A stretch of 64,000 nt of DNA from Bacillota bacterium (GCA_050952085.1 JBMNKH010000004.1:444793-508792), one strand, 5' to 3'; shown: positions 23,430 through 62,400, counted from the stretch's first letter. The notes: generated by a model not told the origin, from the letters alone. Numbers and translations: made by a program.

Positions 23430-23993
23430 TTAGTTTGTGTCCTTTAGCCTTCTAGGCTTGCAGATTATCTCGAGGATTTGTGTGTCAAATATTGCGTTGG
23501 CGTGAGCCGGTAGGAGTACCAGGGCTGTATCTGCACCCCTGCTTGTGCCTCCTACTGCTATTACAGGTTCTCCGTAAGGGATGAGGCCTGCATCCAGGGC
23601 CATGGTTGCAATCTCAACTGCTACTTTGGTACCCTGCGAAAACATCCTCAACGTGTGGGAAATCAGCCCTCCAGGGTAGAGCCCGCCGAACTTACCGGTG
23701 ACGGCCCTTTCCACGTTGGCGAACAGGTGGGTAGTGGTTAAGACTTCAGCGCCCTGCTTCTTGAGTGTTTCCCTTGCTTCTGGGCTCATTTCGTCAAATC
23801 CGGGCTCACGGAATCCTACGTGGTGGGTTACGCACACGACCTTAGGACCCTTCTCAACAAAGAAGTTTGCAGTGTAACCTGTGTTTGAAGCTACCACTAT
23901 GTGGTTTATGCCCAATTCCCCGGCCCGTTTGAGCGCCAGCCGGGCAACTTCTTCCGTGTTATGTTTTCCGGGGCTGTCGAAATACACGGTCAT
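23430..23993 (-). CDS. Pyruvate kinase alpha/beta (C-terminal) domain-like protein
   Basis: About 185-aa stand-alone PK_C-like fold (INHIVVASNTGYTA...VAVEIATMALDAGLI...VIAVGGT). Confidence 0.65.
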   Translation of the reverse strand: MTVYFDSPGKHNTEEVARLALKRAGELGINHIVVASNTGYTANFFVEKGPKVVCVTHHVGFREPGFDEMSPEARETLKKQGAEVLTTTHLFANVERAVTGKFGGLYPGGLISHTLRMFSQGTKVAVEIATMALDAGLIPYGEPVIAVGGTSRGADTALVLLPAHANAIFDTQILEIICKPRRLKDTN

Positions 23994-24071
23994 CTAAATC
24001 ACTCCTTTACCAGTCTGTCACTACCAATAATACACAATAACCAAGCAAAACAAACGATGAAAACTGTGACC

Positions 24072-24590
24072 GGTGGAGGTTGATTGATTTTGGTACCGCG
24101 TTTGTTCTGAAGGTGGTTGATTTTAGTGCCAGGTTGGGGCAAAGCTGGTTGATTTCAGTATCAGGTTCGTGGCGAAAGCGGTCGGTTCTGGTACCGGCTT
24201 TGCGCCAAGAGTGGCCGGTTTTGATACCAGGTTGAGCCGGAACTGGTCGATTCGGGTATCAGGTTTGGGGTAGAAGTGGTCGATTTTAGTACCAGGCAAA
24301 GCATCAACTTGGTTGATTTTGATACCACCTCTGCCAGTGCCTGCTTGAATTTGGTACCAGGTTGCCGGCGAACCTGGTTGGTTTTGGTACCGGGTTTGCT
24401 CCAAAGGTGGTTGGTTCCCATTCCAGGTTAGGCCAGCACTGGTTGATCTTAGGCCCATGTTTGGCGTTGGGATGATCGGATTTGGTACCAGCTGTGCGCT
24501 AAAGGTGGTCAATTTCGATACCAGGCAGGGTGGACACGGTGATTTTACCAGGTCCGGGGCTAAGTGATAGGCTTCGATATCAGCTGATAC
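24072..24590. repeat. Tandem array of about 15 degenerate units with a 33-bp period. Each unit has a palindromic core (consensus GGTTGATTTTGGTACCAGG, containing TTGGTACCAA) plus a 12-16 nt variable segment.
   Basis: Seen directly in the sequence. Units start near 24078, 24112, 24146, 24180, 24214, 24246, 24278, 24311, 24348, 24376, 24409, 24441, 24478, 24507 and 24541. Occupies the 710-bp divergent intergenic region between the PK-like gene and cdaA. Confidence 0.85.
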
Positions 24591-24705
24591 TGTTCCCTGG
24601 AATTTCCTTCTGCAAGTAACGCTGCAGTAAACAGCTAAAAAAAGGGTTCCTTAAGCAGCGGGCGAATGATATCCTATAGACATAAGGAAAGGGAGTGGGC
24701 AGTTC

Positions 24706-25476
24706 TTGCTGGAACAGCTTCGTTTCTTCACCTGGCAGGATGTGTTGCTTGCCATAGTCGATATTGCAGTTGTGGCGTACTTGTTCTACAAGATTTTTAC
24801 GCTCATCCGTGGGACAAGAGCTGTTCAGCTCCTTAAAGGTGTCGCTTTTCTGTTTGTCCTCGTGTCCCTCACCCAGTGGGCGAGGCTTTACACTATCAAC
24901 TGGATCTTGGTCCAGGTAAGGACCATGCTGCTGGTAGCCCTGCCCATTGTGTTCCAGCCCGAGCTGCGGCGAGGGCTTGAGCAGATAGGGCGCGGCAGGT
25001 TGTTTTCCCGATCCTTGCTCCGCCTTGAGGAACACGATGTGGAGAAGACAGTGGATGAACTGGTCACAGCGTGCTTCAACCTGTCCTCCCAGAAAACCGG
25101 CGGGCTTATTGTGCTTGAGAGGGAAACAGGACTTGAGGAGTACATGGAAGATGCGATCCGCATAGACGGCCTTGTAACAAGCCAACTGGTTGAGAATATT
25201 TTTGTGTTTGGGAGCCCGCTTCACGACGGCGCCGTCATCATAAGAGGAGACAGGGTTGCTGCAGCTGCAAGTTTTCTTCCCCCAACCCAGGACCCTGTAA
25301 CAGTTGAACTGGGTTCCAGGCACAGGGCGGCCCTGGGGATCACCCAGGTGTCTGATGCTGTGGCCATCGTGATATCTGAGGAAACCGGCACAGTCTCCCT
25401 GGCGTCAGGAGGAAGGTTGATCAGGGGGCTTGATGCCAAGACCTTGAGGGAAAAGCTTTTGGAAGCACTTGCTTAG
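24706..25476 (+). CDS. cdaA: Diadenylate cyclase CdaA (DisA_N/DAC domain, three N-terminal TM helices)
   Basis: DAC motifs GSPLHDGAVIIRGDRV and SRHRAALGITQVSDAVAIVISEETGTVSLA. TTG start after an AAAGGGAG RBS. Followed by cdaR and glmM. Confidence 0.88.
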   Translation: MLEQLRFFTWQDVLLAIVDIAVVAYLFYKIFTLIRGTRAVQLLKGVAFLFVLVSLTQWARLYTINWILVQVRTMLLVALPIVFQPELRRGLEQIGRGRLFSRSLLRLEEHDVEKTVDELVTACFNLSSQKTGGLIVLERETGLEEYMEDAIRIDGLVTSQLVENIFVFGSPLHDGAVIIRGDRVAAAASFLPPTQDPVTVELGSRHRAALGITQVSDAVAIVISEETGTVSLASGGRLIRGLDAKTLREKLLEALA

Positions 25477-25514
25477 CCATTGGTTATTCAAATTTCCAGC
25501 CGGAGGCCTGGTGA

Positions 25515-26729
25515 ATGATTCGGAAGGTAATAACTAACGATTATACAGCGAAAATAATCTCTGTGATTCTGGCCCTGATCGTTTGGGTCCAGGTCTTTAA
25601 CGATAAGAACCCTTTGGAGAGGCGGATTTTCGCGGTAGATGTGGTCCCCAAGGAAGTCAGTGAGGAGATCATCATCGTTTCGACTGATCCTCCTAAAGTC
25701 AATGTTACTTTTGAAGGACGTGCCAGGACCCTTGACGAGATCGATGAAGAGAGCCTAAAGGCGGTCGCTAACCTGTCTGAGGCCGGTGAAGGCATGTTCA
25801 CCGCTGAATTGTCGGTTGATGCCCCCTATGGTGTGAAAATCGTGGAAATAAATCCCCAACTAGTCAGTTTCCACGTGGACGTAATGTCCGCTGCAGACAT
25901 TGGAGTGGCGATCGAAGCCCTGGGATACCCCCACGAAGACTTTGAAAAGGGAGAGCCTATACCTTCTACCGGCACAGTAAGGGTTACAGGGCCTAAGAGG
26001 TTGGTAGAAAGGGTCAAGTATGTTCAAGGTATCGTGGATATTTCAGGCGCGCGGGAAGCGATAACCTCAGTGGTCAAGCTGTCAGCCCGTGACGGGGCCG
26101 GCAATGAAGTCTCGGGAGTCAGCATTGAACCGAATCAGGTGCATGTTACCGTGCCCCTCAATTCTCTTCCGCCGTCAAAGATTGTACCTGTACAGGCTGT
26201 AGTCGGCGGTACACCAAAGGCCGGATTTGCCGTAGGACCTGTTTCAGCCAGTCCTGCCCAGGTGAAAATAAGGGCTCCTGAACCGGTGCTGAGAAACATC
26301 GGGCATATATCTACGAAACCCATTGACGTAACAGGAAAAGACAGCACCTTCCTGCATCAGGCTACCCTTGATCTGCCCCAGGGGGTAACCGTACAGGACG
26401 GGCGTGTACTAATTACAGTTGAAATTGTTGAAGACATCACCACCAAGACCTACGAAGGTGTAATCGTACAACTTGAATCTCCGCCTGTGGGCTATGCGTG
26501 GGAGATCGACCCTGCGATAGTGGATGTAGATATTACAGGACGGAGCGATATCTTAGATAAAATAGCCAAGGACGACATAACAGTATATATAGATGCCTAC
26601 GGTAGGACCGAGGGTACTGCAGATCTGGTGGTTGCCTACAGGATACGAACTCCTGAAGGCACTGACCCGGACATGCTGCAAGTGGACATCAAACCCGCCC
26701 GGGTCAAGCTTACTTTGACCAAACGGTAA
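25515..26729 (+). CDS. cdaR: CdaA regulatory protein CdaR (YbbR-like repeats)
   Basis: N-terminal TM anchor followed by repeated YbbR-type beta domains. Conserved position in the cdaA-cdaR-glmM operon. Confidence 0.85.
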   Translation: MIRKVITNDYTAKIISVILALIVWVQVFNDKNPLERRIFAVDVVPKEVSEEIIIVSTDPPKVNVTFEGRARTLDEIDEESLKAVANLSEAGEGMFTAELSVDAPYGVKIVEINPQLVSFHVDVMSAADIGVAIEALGYPHEDFEKGEPIPSTGTVRVTGPKRLVERVKYVQGIVDISGAREAITSVVKLSARDGAGNEVSGVSIEPNQVHVTVPLNSLPPSKIVPVQAVVGGTPKAGFAVGPVSASPAQVKIRAPEPVLRNIGHISTKPIDVTGKDSTFLHQATLDLPQGVTVQDGRVLITVEIVEDITTKTYEGVIVQLESPPVGYAWEIDPAIVDVDITGRSDILDKIAKDDITVYIDAYGRTEGTADLVVAYRIRTPEGTDPDMLQVDIKPARVKLTLTKR

Positions 26730-26825
26730 CACCGGAGCTCCTGACGCCATAGCTAACAGAAGAGCAGGAGGCAACAGTACAGCCGTAGGTAACAGGGCAA
26801 TGGAAAAGAACCGGAGGGTACTTGG

Positions 26826-28187
26826 ATGAATCTGTTCGGAACTGACGGTATCCGTGGTATAGCTAACGAGGATTTGATATGTGAAGTTGCTTTCAAACTG
26901 GGCCAGGCTGTGGGCCTGCACCTTTCGCCGGGCAAGCCGGTTTGCGTAGGAAAAGACACAAGGATTTCCGGCGGCATGCTGGAAGCAGCTCTTGTCGCAG
27001 GAATCACTTCTACAGGAAGAGATGCAGTATGCCTGGGAGTGATCACCACTCCGGGGCTTTCTTTTGTTGTGAGCCGTTTCAACATGGGCGGCGGGGTGAT
27101 GATTTCTGCATCCCACAATCCTTTTGAATATAACGGGCTCAAAGTGTTCGGCCCTGACGGCAGGAAGATTTCAGAAGATACCGAGCTAGTGTTTTCCCGC
27201 ATGATACTCAGGGAATCCGACAACTACCCCCGGCCGGTAGGTGCAGAGGTTGGCAGGGTTATCGACGGAAGCCGGATGGTCAGAGACTATATCGGGTTTC
27301 TCAGCAACTTCTTGGAAGCTGGCATGGCCAGGCTAAGGGTTGTAATTGATACAGCTAACGGCTCTGCATCTTACCTTGCCCCTGAAGTGTGGAAGGCTCT
27401 CAGTGGGAATGTGAAGGTTATCAACTGCAGCCCTGACGGGGTCAACATCAACCAAGAGTGTGGTTCGACAAACCCGTCACTCCTGGCCCAGGAGGTAGCC
27501 TGGGGCGATTATGATGTGGGCTTTGCATACGACGGGGACGGTGACAGGTGTATAGCCGTTGACGAGAAGGGTAATGTGCTTAACGGAGACCACATAATGG
27601 CGATTATGGCTTCAGATATGGCTGCAAGCAGCCGGCTCGCTGGGAACACGGTTGTAGGAACGGTAATGGCAAACCTAGGGCTGGAGTTGTACCTGGCTTC
27701 ATGCGGGATAAGCTTGCTCAGGACTCCTGTGGGAGACCGCTTCGTACTCGAGGAGATGGAACGTGGCGGGTATACTCTGGGCGGCGAGCAGTCAGGCCAT
27801 ATTATCTTCGGCGACATTCTGCCGGCAGGTGACGGGATGTTAACATCCCTGAACCTGGCACGCGTGCTTGCCAAGTCAGGCCGGAGACTGTCGGAACTGG
27901 CTTCGGTTGTGAAAGAAGCGCCTCAGATCTTGGTAAACGTGAAATCCCAGTACCCTGACAAGGTTGTGAGCCTGCCCCAGGTGCAGGCAGCTGTCAGGAA
28001 GGTAAGCAAGGACCTTGAAGGCGTAGGGCGGGTGGTGGTACGCCCCTCAGGCACAGAACCCTTGGTCAGGATAATGGTTGAATCACAGGATAGCGCCATG
28101 GTTGACAAGTGCGTTGACTACCTTAAATCAGTGATTACAGAGCAAATCAGGTCGGGGGCTTCCAATTTGAAACCCCCAACCGCTTAG
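26826..28187 (+). CDS. glmM: Phosphoglucosamine mutase
   Basis: LFGTDGIRG, active-site serine loop ISASHNPFEYNGLKVF, FAYDGDGDR metal-binding loop. Confidence 0.93.
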   Translation: MNLFGTDGIRGIANEDLICEVAFKLGQAVGLHLSPGKPVCVGKDTRISGGMLEAALVAGITSTGRDAVCLGVITTPGLSFVVSRFNMGGGVMISASHNPFEYNGLKVFGPDGRKISEDTELVFSRMILRESDNYPRPVGAEVGRVIDGSRMVRDYIGFLSNFLEAGMARLRVVIDTANGSASYLAPEVWKALSGNVKVINCSPDGVNINQECGSTNPSLLAQEVAWGDYDVGFAYDGDGDRCIAVDEKGNVLNGDHIMAIMASDMAASSRLAGNTVVGTVMANLGLELYLASCGISLLRTPVGDRFVLEEMERGGYTLGGEQSGHIIFGDILPAGDGMLTSLNLARVLAKSGRRLSELASVVKEAPQILVNVKSQYPDKVVSLPQVQAAVRKVSKDLEGVGRVVVRPSGTEPLVRIMVESQDSAMVDKCVDYLKSVITEQIRSGASNLKPPTA

Positions 28188-35537: not shown

Positions 35538-35649
35538 TCAGCACTACACTGCCTCCAGAATGGCTTTTATCAGGGCATTGTTTTTTGATCTTTGATTGGC
35601 CTTTGGTTGACTTTTGATTGGTGACAGGGGGAGCAAGGAGGGATCTGGT

Positions 35650-37545
35650 ATGGAAGACAGAAGAGTTGAGTCTATTTTGGCCACAGACGTTGGTTCTACT
35701 ACCACCAAAGCTATTCTTATTGAGAAGATAGGCGATGAATACCGGCTGGTCACCCGCGGCGAAATGCCCACGACAGTGGAAGCCCCATGGGAAAACGTGA
35801 TGATCGGTGTGAAGAAAGCTATAAGGCGGGTAGAAGAACTAATAGACAGGCCACTTCTTGATGAGGAAGGTAACCTGATTAGGCCGAAAGACGGCCAAAA
35901 AGGTGTAGATATGTACGTTTCTACGTCTTCGGCCGGAGGCGGGCTTCAGATGATGGTGGCTGGCCTGGTTAAGTCTATCAGTGCCAGTTCAGCTCATAGG
36001 GCAGCCCTAGGCGCAGGGGCGGTAGTGCTTGATGTCATATCAGTAGACGACGGAAGATCACAATCAGAGCAAATAACCAGAATCACTGAGCTGCGTCCTG
36101 ACATCATCCTGGTGTCAGGCGGCGTAGACGGAGGTTCTGTTGCATATCTGGCGTTGATTGCAGAGATTATCAAACAGGCTAACCCCCAGCCTCGCTTTGG
36201 TGCTACTTATAAGCTGCCCCTTATTTATGCGGGCAACAAAGACGCCCAGGATATTGTGATGCAAATATGTGGAGATACAATGGACGTGCATTTGGTCCCA
36301 AATCTCAGGCCGCGTCACGACATTGAGAACCTTGGGCCCGCCAGGGAAGCCATACATGATCTCTTTATGAACCACGTGATGGCTCAAGCTCCCGGATACG
36401 GTGAACTCATGGAACTGGTGGATACAACGATTATGCCCACACCCGGCGCTGTGGGAAAACTCATCATGGTTCTGGCCGAACAGAACAACCAAAGCATTAT
36501 AGGCGTGGATATTGGCGGGGCGACAACTGACGTATTTTCCAACTTCGAAGATACCTTTACCAGGACAGTGTCTGCGAACCTGGGAATGAGCTATTCAATA
36601 TGCAATGTGCTTGAGGAGGCAGGTTTCGATAATATCCTGCGATGGGTGCCTTTCAGCATGGACCAGTCCCAGATTTCAGACTGGATTGCCAACAAGATGG
36701 TTAGGCCCACCACAATACCCCAGACCGTCTACCACCTTGTGGTCGAGCACGCGCTTGCAAGGGAAGCCCTGCGGTTGAGTTTTGAACACCACAAGAGCCT
36801 TGCGAAAAAAGTCGAGGAAGAAAAAGTAGGATTTGGCCGCGAGTCCGGGGTTACAAAAGCTTCCGGACGTGACATTATCAATATGATGGAGCTTGACATG
36901 CTGGTGGGTTCAGGCGGTGTGCTGTCACATGCCCCCAGGCGGCAGCAAGCTGCACTCATGCTCATAGATGCTTTCCAGCCTGAAGGCGTCACACAGTTAG
37001 CTGTGGACTCTATCTTCATGATGCCTCACCTTGGAGTACTTTCTTCTGTATATCCGGAAATTGCTGCTGAGGTGTTTGATAAAGACTGTCTGGTGAGGCT
37101 TGGTACAGTCGTGGCGCCTGTCGGTCCTGCACCCAGGAACGGTGTTTTGGCTACCATTCACATTGCCATGCCCGGCGGAGAGGTCCAGGAGCACCAGATC
37201 ACAGCAGGTGATCTCAAGGTGATTTCTTTGGAAGTGGGCGACACTGTATCATGCAAGCTTGTACCTAACGGCGGGCGTATAGATGTGGGTGCAGGCAGGG
37301 GTACTATCTTTGAAACTGAACTTCACGGAGGGCTCGTGGGAATCGTGTTAGATGGCAGGGGCCGTCCTATAGAGTTGCCCGAGAGCGGTTCCGAGCGGAT
37401 CAAGAAACTGACTTCGTGGTTTGAAACTATGAACGCTTATCCCATGGAGCCTGTTTACGAGCTGCAGAAGCGCTTCCCGGCTAAAGAGGAAGACACACAA
37501 GGAGGGAAGAAACGTGGCGGTCTCTTCGGTTTATTCAGGAGATAG
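35650..37545 (+). CDS. GlmL/MutL-family ASKHA (actin-fold) ATPase, long form (631 aa), copy 1
   Basis: Phosphate-1 motif ILATDVGSTTTKAILIEK, adenosine motif VIGVDIGGATTDVFS, and an extra C-terminal domain of about 150 aa. ATG at 35650 after an AAGGAGGG RBS. Confidence 0.7.
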   Translation: MEDRRVESILATDVGSTTTKAILIEKIGDEYRLVTRGEMPTTVEAPWENVMIGVKKAIRRVEELIDRPLLDEEGNLIRPKDGQKGVDMYVSTSSAGGGLQMMVAGLVKSISASSAHRAALGAGAVVLDVISVDDGRSQSEQITRITELRPDIILVSGGVDGGSVAYLALIAEIIKQANPQPRFGATYKLPLIYAGNKDAQDIVMQICGDTMDVHLVPNLRPRHDIENLGPAREAIHDLFMNHVMAQAPGYGELMELVDTTIMPTPGAVGKLIMVLAEQNNQSIIGVDIGGATTDVFSNFEDTFTRTVSANLGMSYSICNVLEEAGFDNILRWVPFSMDQSQISDWIANKMVRPTTIPQTVYHLVVEHALAREALRLSFEHHKSLAKKVEEEKVGFGRESGVTKASGRDIINMMELDMLVGSGGVLSHAPRRQQAALMLIDAFQPEGVTQLAVDSIFMMPHLGVLSSVYPEIAAEVFDKDCLVRLGTVVAPVGPAPRNGVLATIHIAMPGGEVQEHQITAGDLKVISLEVGDTVSCKLVPNGGRIDVGAGRGTIFETELHGGLVGIVLDGRGRPIELPESGSERIKKLTSWFETMNAYPMEPVYELQKRFPAKEEDTQGGKKRGGLFGLFRR

Positions 37546-39409: not shown

Positions 39410-39500
39410 TCTGATGTAAGAGGATTTTTCGCGGCGGATGTCGTAATTGATCCAAGTAGTCTTATTGTGTCATGGTGCCAGTGAGGGAGGGGAAGACTTA

Positions 39501-41357
39501 GTGCAGGAGCAAAAGAATGCGTTTGAGCTAGACAGAGAGATAAACTCTGTGTTAGCTACCGACTGTGGTTCCACAACGACCAAAGCTATTCTTATCGAAA
39601 AAACCGGCGACGAATACCGCCTGGTCGTGCGGGGAGAAGCTCCCACAACAGTTGAGGCGCCTTTTGAAGACGTTACAATGGGTGCTAGGAATGCTATCAG
39701 GGAAATTGAAGAACTTACCGGTAAGACATTCCTAAACGAACAGGGAGTAATCACACCAAGGCAACCTGACGGCTCAGGGGTAGACATCTACATGTCAACC
39801 TCATCTGCAGGTGGCGGCCTCCAGATGATGGTAGCAGGTGTGGTTAAGACTATGACCGCCGAATCTGCCGCCCGGGCTGCCCTGGGTGCCGGGGCTATCG
39901 TAATGGACGTTATTTCAGTAGACGACGGCAGGAAGCCCCATGAGAAGATCCAGAGGATCAGGCAGCTAAGGCCTGACATGATTCTGCTTTCAGGAGGAAT
40001 TGATGGCGGCACCATCACTCACGTAGCTGAAATCGGTGAGCTCATCTCAGCTGCGGAACCCAAGCCGAGGCTTGGTATCGGGTACAAGCTGCCCATTATT
40101 TTCGCCGGTAACAAGCAGGCCCGGACACATATCAGCAATATCCTCGGTGAGAAGACCGACCTTAGAATCGTGGACAACCTGCGGCCTGTGCTTGAGACCG
40201 AAGTGCTTGGGCCTGCAAGGGAAGAGATTCACAACCTTTTCATGGAGCACGTTATGGCCCAGGCGCCTGGTTACAACAAGCTTATGCAGTGGACCCCCAT
40301 ACCCATTATGCCCACTCCTGGTGCAGTTGGCGCTTGCATGCAGACTACTTCACAGGAATATGACATGAGCGTCATAGGGGTTGACATAGGTGGCGCAACC
40401 ACTGACGTATTCTCAGTGTTTGGCGAGTTCTTCAATAGAACCGTTTCAGCTAACCTGGGTATGAGCTACTCTATCTGCAACGTGCTTCTCGAAGCAGGTG
40501 TGCGGAATATCATGAGATGGATTCCGTTCTCCATTGAAGAAGGAGCTCTTAGGAACAGGATCAGGAATAAGATGATCCGTCCCACCACTATCCCGCAGAC
40601 TCTGGACGAGCTTATCATCGAACAAGCTATTGCAAGGGAAGCTTTGCGTCTTGCTTTCGAGCACCACAAGAGCTTGGCAGTGGGGCTTAGAGGCGTACAC
40701 AGGCAGAGGACCATTGGAGATACCTTCGAACAGACTGGAAGTGACGAGACATACATCGACATGGCTGAGCTTGGCATGCTTATCGGCTCAGGCGGATGTC
40801 TGTCCCACGCACCCAGGCGTGCACAAGCTGCTATGATGCTTATGGACGCTTTCCAGCCAGAGGCAACAACCATGTTGGCGGTTGACTCAATCTTCATGAT
40901 GCCGCAGCTGGGTATCCTGGCATCTATCCATCCGAAAGCTTCCATGCAGGTGTTTGACAGGGACTGCCTAGTCAAGCTTGGAACGGCAATTGCAGCTGCA
41001 GGCCCCAACGGCAAAGCTGAGTTCGGCGCTCCTTGTCTGGAAGTGACCCTTGAATTTGACGGCAAGACATATGAAGAGTCTGTGCCTTTCGGTTCCGTGA
41101 AAGTTATCCCGGTTCCCGAAGACACAGTTGCATTAGCAATGATCCGGCCGTCCCGGCAGTTTGATGCAGGCAGGGGCTATGGACATGAAGTCAAGAAAGA
41201 TGTCAACGGCGGTGTGGTTGGGGTCATCATCGATTGCAGGGGACGCCCGCTTGCCCTGCCCGAAGATGTGAGAGCCCGGAACGCCAAGCTGGTAGAGTGG
41301 TTCCTTGCGATGAATATGTATCCTGCGGAATCGCTCAAGAAATATGCTGAGGTTTAG
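39501..41357 (+). CDS. GlmL/MutL-family ASKHA ATPase, long form, copy 2
   Basis: VLATDCGSTTTKAILIEKTGDEYRLVVRGE and VIGVDIGGATTDVFS. Collinear with copy 1 including the C-terminal extension. GTG at 39501 after a GAGGGAGGGG RBS. Confidence 0.7.
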   Translation: MQEQKNAFELDREINSVLATDCGSTTTKAILIEKTGDEYRLVVRGEAPTTVEAPFEDVTMGARNAIREIEELTGKTFLNEQGVITPRQPDGSGVDIYMSTSSAGGGLQMMVAGVVKTMTAESAARAALGAGAIVMDVISVDDGRKPHEKIQRIRQLRPDMILLSGGIDGGTITHVAEIGELISAAEPKPRLGIGYKLPIIFAGNKQARTHISNILGEKTDLRIVDNLRPVLETEVLGPAREEIHNLFMEHVMAQAPGYNKLMQWTPIPIMPTPGAVGACMQTTSQEYDMSVIGVDIGGATTDVFSVFGEFFNRTVSANLGMSYSICNVLLEAGVRNIMRWIPFSIEEGALRNRIRNKMIRPTTIPQTLDELIIEQAIAREALRLAFEHHKSLAVGLRGVHRQRTIGDTFEQTGSDETYIDMAELGMLIGSGGCLSHAPRRAQAAMMLMDAFQPEATTMLAVDSIFMMPQLGILASIHPKASMQVFDRDCLVKLGTAIAAAGPNGKAEFGAPCLEVTLEFDGKTYEESVPFGSVKVIPVPEDTVALAMIRPSRQFDAGRGYGHEVKKDVNGGVVGVIIDCRGRPLALPEDVRARNAKLVEWFLAMNMYPAESLKKYAEV

Positions 41358-52981: not shown

Positions 52982-53132
52982 TAGCTGCTGATCCATCCGT
53001 GCCTGCTTGTCTTTCTGTGCCTGGACAGCCTGTATGAGGACGTGCTTGTGGACGACCTGTGTGGGGGCGTGCTCTTGATCCCCAGGTTCTTTGCTCTTAG
53101 CTCATAGAAGGCCAATAGAAGACCAGCGGAAT

Positions 53133-53790
53133 GGTGCACTACGTGCACCATTTTAGCCTGTTTCCCGTCTCACCAACGATAAAACGGCGTACCACGTGCA
53201 CCATTCCGGTCCATTTCCGGCCTTGCGGTCGCTGAAATGGTGCACCACATGCACCATTCTGGCCTGTTTGCAGTCTCGCCATCGACATGACGGTGCACTA
53301 CATGCACCATTCTGGCTCACCTTCAGCCTTCCGGCCCATGAAATGGTGCACCACGTACACCATTCTGACCTGTTTGCTGTCTCGCCATCGACAAAATGGT
53401 GCACTACATGCACCATTCTGGCTCACCTTCAGCCTTTCGGCCCATGAAATGGTGTACCACGTACGCCATTCTGACCTGTTTGCTGTTCCGCCATCGACAA
53501 AATGGTGTACCACGTGCACCATTTTGGCCTGTTCCCCGTCTCGCCAACGACAAAACGGTGCACCACGTGCACCATTCCTGTCCATTTCCGGCCTTTCGGC
53601 CCATGAAATGGTGTACCACATGCACCATTTTGGCCTGTCTTACTTCTCTCCGACGACAAAATGGTGCACTACATGCACCATACTGCGTCCATTCTTATCT
53701 TTCTGTTGCTGAAACGGTGCACCGCGTGCACCATTATGAATTCGTTTCCGCCTTGCTACCCCCAAAACGGTGCAGCAAGTGCACCAAGAA
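53133..53790. repeat. Array of 13 copies of a 23-bp hairpin repeat (AATGGTGCACCACGTGCACCATT) with exactly 30-bp spacers (53-bp period). CRISPR-like geometry, but the spacers fall into two alternating related families.
   Basis: Seen directly in the sequence. Repeat copies at about 53133, 53186, 53239, 53292, 53345, 53398, 53451, 53504, 53557, 53610, 53663, 53716 and 53769. The last copies are degenerate. No cas genes in the window. Lies in the convergent intergenic region. Confidence 0.8.
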
Positions 53791-56292: not shown

Positions 56293-56409
56293 CGTGAAAG
56301 TGTCAATGCATCACTAGGGGCAATGACTGAAATGCGTCTTCTCATAGTTTGGCACTGTGTTATATTGGTGTCCCTGTTCTTGGTGCTCGTTCTCTCGATG
56401 CCCGTCCTC

Positions 56410-56829
56410 TTAGTGCCCGTGTTCTTGGTGTTCGTGCTCCTCTGTCTTGATTTCTATGTCAATCCCTTGCTTCTTGTAGTAATCCTGAATTGCAGCGTGT
56501 ACTGCTTCGGCCGCCAGGTTAGAGCAATGCAGCTTCTGCGGGGGTAACCCGCCCAGGGATTCTGCCACTTGCTTATTTGAAACTTCCAGTGCTTCTTCCA
56601 AAGTGAGCCCCTTGACCAACTCAGTCACCATGGAACTGGTGGCAATCGCAGCCCCGCACCCGAAAGTCCTGAACTTGATGTCTTCAATCCTGTTGTCCTT
56701 TATCCTCAGGGTTATCCTCATCATATCCCCGCACACAGGATTTCCGACCTGGCCAACGCCATCAGGATTTTCAAGTTCCCCTACGTTTCTGGGATTGAAA
56801 AAATGGTCCATAACTTTCTCATTGTACAT
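56410..56829 (-). CDS. nifU: Fe-S cluster assembly scaffold NifU/IscU with His-rich C-terminal tail
   Basis: NPVCGDMMRITL, FGCGAAIATSS, and HCSNLAAEA with three conserved Cys. Tail EHEHQEHGH. Confidence 0.9.
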   Translation of the reverse strand: MYNEKVMDHFFNPRNVGELENPDGVGQVGNPVCGDMMRITLRIKDNRIEDIKFRTFGCGAAIATSSMVTELVKGLTLEEALEVSNKQVAESLGGLPPQKLHCSNLAAEAVHAAIQDYYKKQGIDIEIKTEEHEHQEHGH

Positions 56830-61026: not shown

Positions 61027-62400
61027 ATGAAACCGGCCTACGGGCTCGAACTTGTCCAAACACAGAAGCTCGTCTTAACGCCTGAGCTGCATCAAGCTAT
61101 CATGATTTTGCAGATGAACGTTCAGGAGCTCTCTGGCTTGATCCTGGAGGAGATTGAGAAGAACCCTCTCTTGGAATTGATTGACGAGACCACGGAAAAA
61201 CTGCATGAAGACGAAGATGAAGAAGACTGGATGGCCTACTTCCTTGACTCTTCAGACCTCGGCCTGGGAGGGAGAGTCAGGGGCAGCTCTTCAGCCAGGC
61301 GCCTGGATGAATACAACCCCTTGCGTTACACTTCTGCCCAACCCAATGTTTCAATCAGGGGGCATTTGTTATCCCAGTTAGGGGTAATACGTCTGGACCC
61401 TAAGGAGCAAAGCATTGCCCGTTTCATCATTGAAAGCATAGATGACAACGGGTATTTGCAGTCTACACCCAGGGAGATTGCCTCGGCCACAGCAAGTTGT
61501 CCGGAACAGGTTGAGAGTGTGCTCAAACTGGTCCAGAAGTTCGACCCACCTGGCGTTGCTGCCAGGAACCTCAGGGAATGCCTTGAACTGCAAGCTGAAG
61601 CCAAGGGCTTGAGCCCGCTTGCGCTAGAGATCATAAGGCACCACCTCGACGACCTTGCCCGGGGCAGGTACAGCAAGATATGCCAAAGCACAAATGCTTG
61701 CCTTAAGCAGGTGCTAAGGGCCAGGGACTCTATAGTCAAACTGCAGCCCAAACCCGGTGCGGCATTTTCAGGAGGCCATGTTACTTTCATAGTGCCTGAT
61801 ATTGCAGTGAAGAGGATCGGTGACGAGTTTGTGGTGATCCTAAACGACAGCGCCTTGCCGTCTATCAGGTGGAACCCTTATTACAGGAAACTGCTTATAT
61901 CCGGAGAGAAAGACGCCCGGAGTTACCTGATCAAGCAGATGAAAAGGGCCCGTTTCCTGTTAAGAAGCATAGAGCAGAGAAGGATAACCATATCCAGGGT
62001 GATGGAGAGCATCGTGGGACGGCAACGGCGGTTCTTCTTGGAAGGTCCGGGGCATCTTGAGCCTATGACCCTCAAGGATGTTGCAGACGAACTGGATATA
62101 CATGATTCTACAGTATCCAGGGCGGTATCCGGAAAGTATGTGGATACGCCTTTCGGGGTGTTTCCATGCAAGATGTTTTTTTCTCCTGGAGTCGAGTCCT
62201 ACGGGCAAGAGGTTTCCCAGTACAACATAAAGAGAATGATTGAAGAAATGGTGCGCAATGAAGACCCAGGGGCTCCGTTAACCGACAGCCAGATTGCCCA
62301 CGGCCTTAACTCGCAGGGCGTAGAGATCGCCCGGCGCACAGTTGCCAAGTACCGGTCCCAACTGGGAATTCCTCCTTCAAACCGCAGGAAGAAACTGTGA
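61027..62400 (+). CDS. rpoN: RNA polymerase sigma-54 factor
   Basis: N-terminal activator-interacting region LTPELHQAIMILQM. C-terminal HTH and RpoN box ARRTVAKYR. Confidence 0.92.
   Translation: MKPAYGLELVQTQKLVLTPELHQAIMILQMNVQELSGLILEEIEKNPLLELIDETTEKLHEDEDEEDWMAYFLDSSDLGLGGRVRGSSSARRLDEYNPLRYTSAQPNVSIRGHLLSQLGVIRLDPKEQSIARFIIESIDDNGYLQSTPREIASATASCPEQVESVLKLVQKFDPPGVAARNLRECLELQAEAKGLSPLALEIIRHHLDDLARGRYSKICQSTNACLKQVLRARDSIVKLQPKPGAAFSGGHVTFIVPDIAVKRIGDEFVVILNDSALPSIRWNPYYRKLLISGEKDARSYLIKQMKRARFLLRSIEQRRITISRVMESIVGRQRRFFLEGPGHLEPMTLKDVADELDIHDSTVSRAVSGKYVDTPFGVFPCKMFFSPGVESYGQEVSQYNIKRMIEEMVRNEDPGAPLTDSQIAHGLNSQGVEIARRTVAKYRSQLGIPPSNRRKKL

Follow-up and report, generated by a model that had tools for sequence, protein, structure and literature searches.

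Genomic context of the array

The window, that is, the whole 64-kb stretch of DNA analysed here, is an ordinary housekeeping segment of a chromosome. The genome records closest to it are metagenome-assembled genomes from anaerobic digesters that belong to Candidatus Fermentithermobacillaceae, and the host is an uncultured bacterium of this family from such digesters. Two operons diverge from a gap of 712 bp. The leftward operon starts on the minus strand with a gene for a pyruvate-kinase C-terminal-like domain (PF02887; hereafter PK_C, 23430–23993) and continues through GPI, rapZ, yvcK, and whiA, with uvrCAB, ftsEX, and prfB located beyond. On the plus strand, cdaA (DAC domain, 24706–25476), cdaR (YbbR), and glmM occupy 24706–28187, and acpS, tsaEBD, three M42 peptidase genes, an amidase gene, and rpoN lie further to the right. 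Pfam annotation of the ORFs revealed no replication, partition, transposase, cas, plasmid, or phage genes in the window, and the GC skew was positive across its entire length with no switch. Elsewhere in the window, paralogous genes encoding approximately 640 aa each (35614–37545 and 39447–41357) carry a MutL-type domain of the glutamate-mutase-associated kind (PF13941), and the ORF after each of them is unannotated or weakly annotated.

Conserved promoter-proximal blocks are present on both sides of the gap. On the left, the block cactaccaataatacacaat (24019–24038, minus strand) is largely conserved in related species, and from its sequence we infer that it represents the extended −10 element (TGnTATTAT, minus strand) of the PK_C-GPI-rapZ-yvcK-whiA operon. 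On the right, the block gggttccttaagcagcgggcgaatgatatcctataga (24644–24680, plus strand), whose GGTTCC and GCGAATGnTATYCTATA parts are kept in related species, is likely the cdaA promoter (TTCCTT, 17 nt, TGnTATCCT). A promoter consensus scan called neither of these two blocks. The motif GGTTCC-N12-14-GCGAATGnTATYCTATA is largely conserved across the family (in the window and in loci L011–L018), approximately 25–60 nt ahead of the cdaA start; it probably serves as the promoter of this gene, possibly together with a regulator site, and its GGTTCC part makes a poor sigma-A −35 element.

The part of the gap between the two blocks, the only one in which relatives differ in sequence and length, is filled here by a repeat array. 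Because gggttccttaagcagcgggcgaatgatatcctataga is located to its right, this array precedes the likely cdaA promoter and is outside the cdaA leader.

Units and higher-order structure

The array comprises 14 clear units and one or two decayed ones at a spacing of 32–33 bp (24082–24602). Fifteen units are arranged head to tail on the plus strand within 24082–24569, each consisting of a 19-bp core (GGTYGRTTYTRGTACCRGG) followed by a 13–14-bp spacer. When the whole 64-kb window was scanned with the degenerate core GGTYGRTTYNRGTRYCAGG, allowing up to three mismatches, 13 matches were obtained between 24082 and 24525, all on the plus strand and 32–33 bp apart. Approximately 1.6 matches per 64-kb window are expected by chance, and a count of 15 was reached in 0 of 100 shuffles. 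The core scan and the self-similarity of the array confirmed the original prediction, made from the sequence alone, of approximately 15 head-to-tail units with a period of about 33 bp; the flanking genes, the gap, and two minus-strand ORFs of 129 and 86 aa were likewise as it had described.

Self-similarity was highest at a lag of 98 bp (0.54), followed by 33 bp (0.47) and 65 bp (0.46), and the unit lengths cycle through 33, 32, and 33 bp. The true period is thus a 98-bp higher-order repeat of three unit types (33+32+33), present in five copies. The first copy (units 1–3, 33+32+33 bp) spans 24082–24179, the second (units 4–6) 24180–24277, the third (units 7–9) 24278–24375, and the fourth (units 10–12) 24376–24473, all on the plus strand; the spacers of the third copy are the most diverged. 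The fifth copy (24474–24602, plus strand) is decayed, with units 13 and 14 still clear, units 15 and 16 barely recognisable, and the register lost. The spacers recur every third unit and do not vary freely, contrary to the original description of a variable segment following the core.

Tandem Repeats Finder did not report the array in the window, which we attribute to its degeneracy, the copies being only 44–69% or, on another estimate, 55–70% identical. Identity between the 98-bp copies was higher in the core than in the spacer (0.67 vs 0.45; Mann–Whitney p = 5e-5), and the conservation maximum coincided with the core phase. The plus strand of the array is G+T-rich, with a GC skew of +0.14 to +0.38. 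A palindrome in each unit proved to be an overstatement: exact GGTACC was found in five units, TGGTACCA in two, and TTGGTACCAA in none. With 10.5 bp per turn, each 98-bp step also rotates the units by approximately 120 degrees, and the palindromes therefore do not all fall on one face of the helix, contrary to what had been proposed.

A second, unrelated tandem array is located at 53130–53790, in the interval where an M42 peptidase gene and an amidase/SH3 gene converge. It consists of 12–13 copies of a 23-nt palindrome (AATGGTGCACCACGTGCACCATT) at a spacing of exactly 53 bp, and two types of 30-nt spacers tend to alternate, resulting in a 106-bp higher-order repeat. These spacers are mutually related, so that it is not a CRISPR array. 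It was equally long in six strain contigs, and the contigs of two assemblies end within it. At 56365–56439, a 15-bp unit (TTGGTGCCCGTGCTC, 70% matches) occurs five times, between the start of the amidase gene and the end of a class-V aminotransferase gene.

The cdaA site in strains and related species

Nine metagenome contigs that encode an identical PK_C protein had a gap identical to that of the window over its 712 bp. Four contigs represented a slightly different strain, with 4 differences each over 6.5 kb and six distinct variable sites overall. Two of the six sites were inside the array, namely 24196 (G>A) in the second higher-order copy and 24292 (C>T) in the third, and these positions correspond to core columns that vary between A and G and between C and T, respectively, among the units. 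Neither changed the length of the array, which was constant in all 13 strain contigs, obtained from independent samples.

Seven related species, with CdaA proteins 75–93% identical to that of the window, keep the divergent PK_C/cdaA pair with a gap of 182–273 bp, and in metagenome contigs of the closest relative type (L024) this gap is about 275 bp. A search with unit profiles detected no array units at the cdaA site in any of the seven species or in the contigs of the closest relative type. One to three 'proto-units' recognised by eye at the cdaA site of L012 and L013 were not confirmed by the unit profiles. In about 73 kb of sequence of the window species there was one array, and the unit-profile search found no solitary units in about 269 kb of family DNA. 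Among the related species examined, the array is found at the cdaA site in the window species only.

Homologous arrays at other loci

Copies of the core were then sought elsewhere, a check that had been proposed for distinguishing a unique locus from a dispersed family, and arrays were found at three unrelated intergenic loci in other genomes. One of them (L023), retrieved by a two-core pattern scan of metagenome contigs, has three units and one truncated unit at a spacing of 33 bp. It follows a secreted-protein gene, beginning 11 nt past the terminator, and is upstream of an unrelated gene; a search with the neighbouring protein yielded a single relative, at 41% identity. The cores of L023 and the window match at 14–15 of 19 positions, compared with only about 6 of 14 in the spacers.

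The other two loci were recognised through the 129-aa ORF of the window array, whose comparison with 1.8 billion representative proteins returned two 152-aa ORFs and one chance FN3 protein. The two 152-aa ORFs have an 11-residue period (KPGTKIDHL...), and the repeat peptide back-translates to the core. Their contigs are L032, with an array between PNTB and an ABC transporter gene in AnMBR.bin312, and L033, with an array between an Opp ATPase gene and a tRNA gene. The cdaA site of AnMBR.bin312, located on the same contig as its array, is empty (L016). The tRNA gene of L033 (9828–9900) is on the same strand as the array, approximately 220 bp further downstream, and has a strong sigma-A-like promoter (TTGACT, 16 nt, TATTAT).

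Using the L033 element as a query, nhmmer matched the window at 24074–24387 (E = 2.7e-25), and no other likeness to the window was found at L032 or L033 beyond the array. Over about 410 bp, the L032 and L033 elements share approximately 89% identity; their ends are sharp and their flanks unrelated. Their divergence was 11.1% in the core and 11.3% in the spacer, which indicates no extra constraint on the core in this comparison. Read from the sequence, both consist of blocks of approximately 170 bp, each containing at least three 33-bp units of two alternating types, a 'stop' unit (GGCCGRTTTTGGGGCCAAT...), and a linker of approximately 45 nt that carries a hairpin resembling a terminator, followed by T residues in a run. 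In L034, a low-coverage assembly (about 1.2×) of the L032 locus from a second sample, three such blocks are present vs two in L032.

All four arrays (window, L023, L032/L034, and L033) are intergenic, located between called genes, and have directly oriented units at a constant spacing of 32–33 bp. The family unit is a 19-bp core with a 13–14-bp recurring spacer and a period of 33 bp; the spacers recur every second or third unit, and the units form higher-order blocks of 66/99 bp or approximately 170 bp. The core strand is the sense strand of the downstream gene at all four loci and is co-oriented with the upstream gene at the three loci where the latter runs towards the array. In L023, L032, and L033, the arrays begin 11–32 nt past the terminator of the upstream gene, as read from the sequence. 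The occupied loci differ between related species. A common genome-wide satellite with no positional preference had been named as evidence against the original prediction; dispersal and lack of positional preference were essentially borne out, but not the commonness. Judging from the sequences recovered, the putative range of the family is Candidatus Fermentithermobacillaceae and related digester Bacillota.

Comparison with known repeat elements

The closest described analogues of the family are the STAR elements of staphylococci and the BOX elements of pneumococci, to neither of which it has sequence similarity. STAR elements (Staphylococcus aureus repeats) consist of a short core and recurring spacers, are interspersed between genes as direct repeats, and have no known function or means of spread; their loci differ between related species and expand or contract individually, and their spacers are locus-specific and stable within a lineage (PMC3532100). 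The present family is similarly intergenic, combines a core with recurring spacers, occupies different loci in different species, has spacers that are specific to a locus and stable within a lineage, and shows a change in block number at one locus. It differs in its 19-bp core, 13–14-bp spacers, and strict 33-bp period (STAR has a 14-bp GC-rich core and spacers of at least 40 bp), and in its nesting within higher-order blocks of 66/99 bp and approximately 170 bp. STAR elements are abundant within one genome; in the window species, the approximately 73 kb covered contains one array.

BOX elements (boxA-boxB(n)-boxC) are modular, with an internal module whose copy number varies, occur in a narrow lineage only, and have been judged parasitic; they have extensive secondary structure, and large copies yield spurious ORFs on both strands (PMC3049150). 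The family described here shares with them the modular intergenic organisation, the repeated internal module, the narrow lineage, the secondary structure, and the spurious ORFs. In contrast to BOX, the tail of the L032 and L033 elements, as read from the sequence, resembles a diverged internal linker and not a separate boxC-like module, and the window array has no recognisable head or tail. Relative to STAR and BOX, the strict 33-bp period and the nested higher-order structure are particular to this family.

Other repeat classes are less similar. Mycobacterial interspersed repetitive units (MIRU) are units of 40–100 bp with small ORFs overlapping the neighbouring genes, scattered as intergenic tandem arrays oriented with the flanking genes. 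The present family likewise has units of tens of bp in tandem at several intergenic loci and with gene orientation, as in MIRU and bacterial minisatellites, but it has no small ORFs overlapping the neighbours, and the window array showed no copy-number polymorphism in the 13 contigs. Like REP/BIME, the elements are short, palindrome-containing, intergenic, and often located just after genes; unlike REP/BIME, the units are all direct and do not alternate.

A RAYT-like gene with inverted REP copies is located 4.3 kb from the L032 array. This region (L032, 4780–5850) contains a 258-aa Y1-transposase gene, which scores 70 bits with the REP-associated tyrosine transposase model (cut-off, 80), with a pair of inverted copies of a 30-nt repeat (GGAACGCGCGAACCGTCCCCCCGTTTCAG) on either side, in the classic transposase-plus-repeat layout. 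The RAYT-flanking REPs and the linker of the array blocks have the short words AAACGGGGG and CTGAATTTGG in common, and the REP GGACGGTTCGCGCGTTCC occurs neither in the window nor in the other arrays. Mobilisation of the array by the RAYT was rejected: the flanking REP differs in sequence, the two short words alone being common with the linker.

The exclusion of a CRISPR array in the original prediction was upheld. The criteria used were repeats of at least approximately 21–23 nt, unique spacers of at least approximately 26 nt, and cas genes; the array has a 19-bp core, 13–14-bp mutually related spacers, and no cas domain among the annotated ORFs. Nothing similar to the array was found in plasmid, phage, and viral collections, and a phage or plasmid origin was rejected. 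A literature search on the core sequence yielded nothing but cloning primers containing KpnI sites, and we know of no convincing counterpart among the operators of CtsR, AbrB (TGGNA-N5-TGGNA), FapR, and GntR-type regulators. Overall, we do not class the family as an iteron, a centromere, a CRISPR array, a REP/BIME element, or a riboswitch-like RNA.

Origin of the array and alternative explanations

We consider that the array is probably a decayed, species-specific copy of a previously undescribed interspersed intergenic direct-repeat family, carried as a neutral or selfish passenger with an incidental effect on cdaA. The element would have arrived or been seeded at a permissive site between the two promoters once the lineage had separated from the nearest relative sampled, and may then have been amplified in 98-bp steps through unequal recombination or slippage. 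The copies would subsequently have diverged, down to 55–70% identity, until they were too unlike for further recombination. Copies too diverged to keep changing fit the invariant length of the array in the 13 contigs, and it may now persist simply as a neutral or selfish passenger. Its effect on cdaA would be limited to placing the divergent promoters approximately 450–520 bp further apart and adding palindrome-rich DNA upstream. Neither a transposition signature, such as terminal inverted repeats or a target duplication, nor a mobilising enzyme was found for the array.

The array is probably not a dedicated control element for cdaA. The originally suggested operator array, taken as tied to this gene, is not supported, given the homologous arrays at three unrelated loci and the site being empty in all related species, in which cdaA regulation thus does not need the array. 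The passenger reading has evidence against it as well: the core is better kept than the spacer both within the window array and between L023 and the window, which pure neutral decay would not lead one to expect. The shared orientation with the downstream genes, the starts just past terminators at three loci, the single array in about 73 kb of the window species, and the missing transposition signature also count against it.

This core conservation, seen both within the array and between loci, is what would be expected if the array were a protein-binding platform, in which a lineage-specific DNA-binding protein recognises the 19-bp core (GGT-N7-GGTACC, a partial dyad). Such a platform might serve as an operator array, a nucleoid-organising site, or a regulator sink, and could here modulate both divergent promoters. 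The constant 32–33-bp unit spacing in four arrays, the position exactly between two promoters, and the fact that both strain SNPs hit core columns already variable among units are in line with this explanation, which we nevertheless regard as unlikely. The cdaA site is empty in all related species, the three other arrays lie just past terminators and not between divergent promoters, and L032 and L033 differ from each other as much in the core as in the spacer. None of the loci has a candidate gene for a binding protein next to the array, and the sites rotate round the helix at 10.5 bp per turn.

An array of sigma-54 promoters was also rejected as the basis of such a platform. Only units 1, 4, and 10 fit TGGCAC-N5-TTGC with at most one mismatch, the −24/−12 pattern had 8 matches in the window vs 8.7 expected by chance, and the fit is not kept in the family, units of L032 and L033 reading TTGGC or TGGGC at the −12 position. 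The window does encode RpoN (sigma-54) with all three Pfam domains (61027–62400), and no sigma-54 activator gene was found among its annotated ORFs. We hold it decidedly improbable that the core is the site of a lineage-specific nucleic-acid-binding factor, with the platform captured between the cdaA-cdaR-glmM and PK_C-GPI-rapZ-yvcK-whiA promoters. If the platform explanation were true, c-di-AMP synthesis and cell-envelope and division genes would be coupled to a core-binding factor.

Alternatively, the G+U-rich strand might be transcribed, either as a 3′ extension of the upstream gene or as separate small RNAs, its repeated hairpin-plus-U-tract modules providing back-up termination or stabilisation or serving as a sponge for an RNA-binding factor. 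Given their co-orientation with the downstream genes and, in three cases, their position just past terminators, the arrays could be transcribed and functional. The co-orientation with the upstream gene in 3 of 3 cases, the terminator-like hairpins followed by T runs within units and block linkers, and A-to-G changes at core position 17 that keep G-U pairing on this strand only all agree with such an element. The folding z-scores (−2.3 to −4.7) point in the same direction, but both strands fold about equally well relative to shuffles, and these values are as expected of dyad-rich repeats. Hairpins in the window array are patchy from unit to unit.

For the helix formed by ACCAGGTT and AACCTGGT, we analysed 29 unit junctions from the four loci against shuffles that keep the column composition; 76.2% of the cells were paired vs 74.7% in the shuffles, and 84 of 500 shuffles were as good, i.e., there was no covariation beyond column composition. 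Searches of Rfam at gathering and relaxed thresholds gave no match for the window, L023, L032, or L033, the best relaxed hit being GA-cis with 20 bits (cut-off, 34.7). A structured non-coding RNA family was not supported on these two grounds. Furthermore, no promoter-like site was found upstream of any array, no co-oriented gene reads into the window array, and the conserved cdaA promoter block lies downstream of it. A transcribed RNA element is therefore quite unlikely in our judgement.

A decayed or cryptic protein-coding repeat with an 11-residue period (e.g., PGTKINQ on the minus strand) is very improbable and effectively refuted. The consensus unit is open in five of its six frames, the minus strand carries the ORFs of 129 and 86 aa, and gene callers placed ORFs of 93–152 aa in these arrays (window 24123–24512, minus strand; L001 9590–9871; L032/L033 10001–10459). 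However, every third unit is 32 bp long and the 98-bp period shifts the frame, no Pfam match was obtained for the 129-aa and 86-aa ORFs, and their homologues are limited to ORFs in other arrays of the same DNA repeat, all of which supports the non-coding reading of the original prediction. A chimeric query of the translated array ORFs against a set of 5.8 billion proteins found no protein at E ≤ 0.01. A repeat-containing protein was also rejected in view of the lack of a continuous frame conserved across loci; conservation follows DNA blocks and not codon positions, and the start and stop positions of the ORFs differ between arrays. The 93–152-aa 'hypothetical proteins' are artefacts of the stop-poor C+A-rich strand.

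Replication-origin iterons or a centromere-like partition site of the sopC/parC type can be dismissed as effectively refuted by context and extremely improbable: the head-to-tail units, each with a short dyad, superficially resemble F-plasmid sopC, which consists of twelve 43-bp repeats, but the array has no partner genes (no initiator or rep gene and no ParA/ParB or ParM/ParR domains, nor any plasmid or phage genes, anywhere in the window), no AT-rich unwinding region, no DnaA-box cluster or GC-skew switch nearby (DnaA-box-like matches are at background level in the window, with none in the array), no match in plasmid, phage, or viral collections, and a chromosomal housekeeping setting at a site not conserved in relatives, with copies at unrelated loci. 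Both the iteron and the parC/parS-type readings in the original prediction are thus not supported.

Significance

The arrays make up a hierarchical, previously undescribed family of intergenic direct repeats from an uncultured, deep lineage of Bacillota commonly found in thermophilic digesters. The family accounts for the spurious 93–152-aa 'hypothetical proteins' called in these genomes, and such arrays should not be taken as regulators of whatever gene adjoins them downstream. If a binding partner exists, the array would be a rare regulator platform newly acquired at the c-di-AMP cyclase operon, but the evidence favours a passenger.
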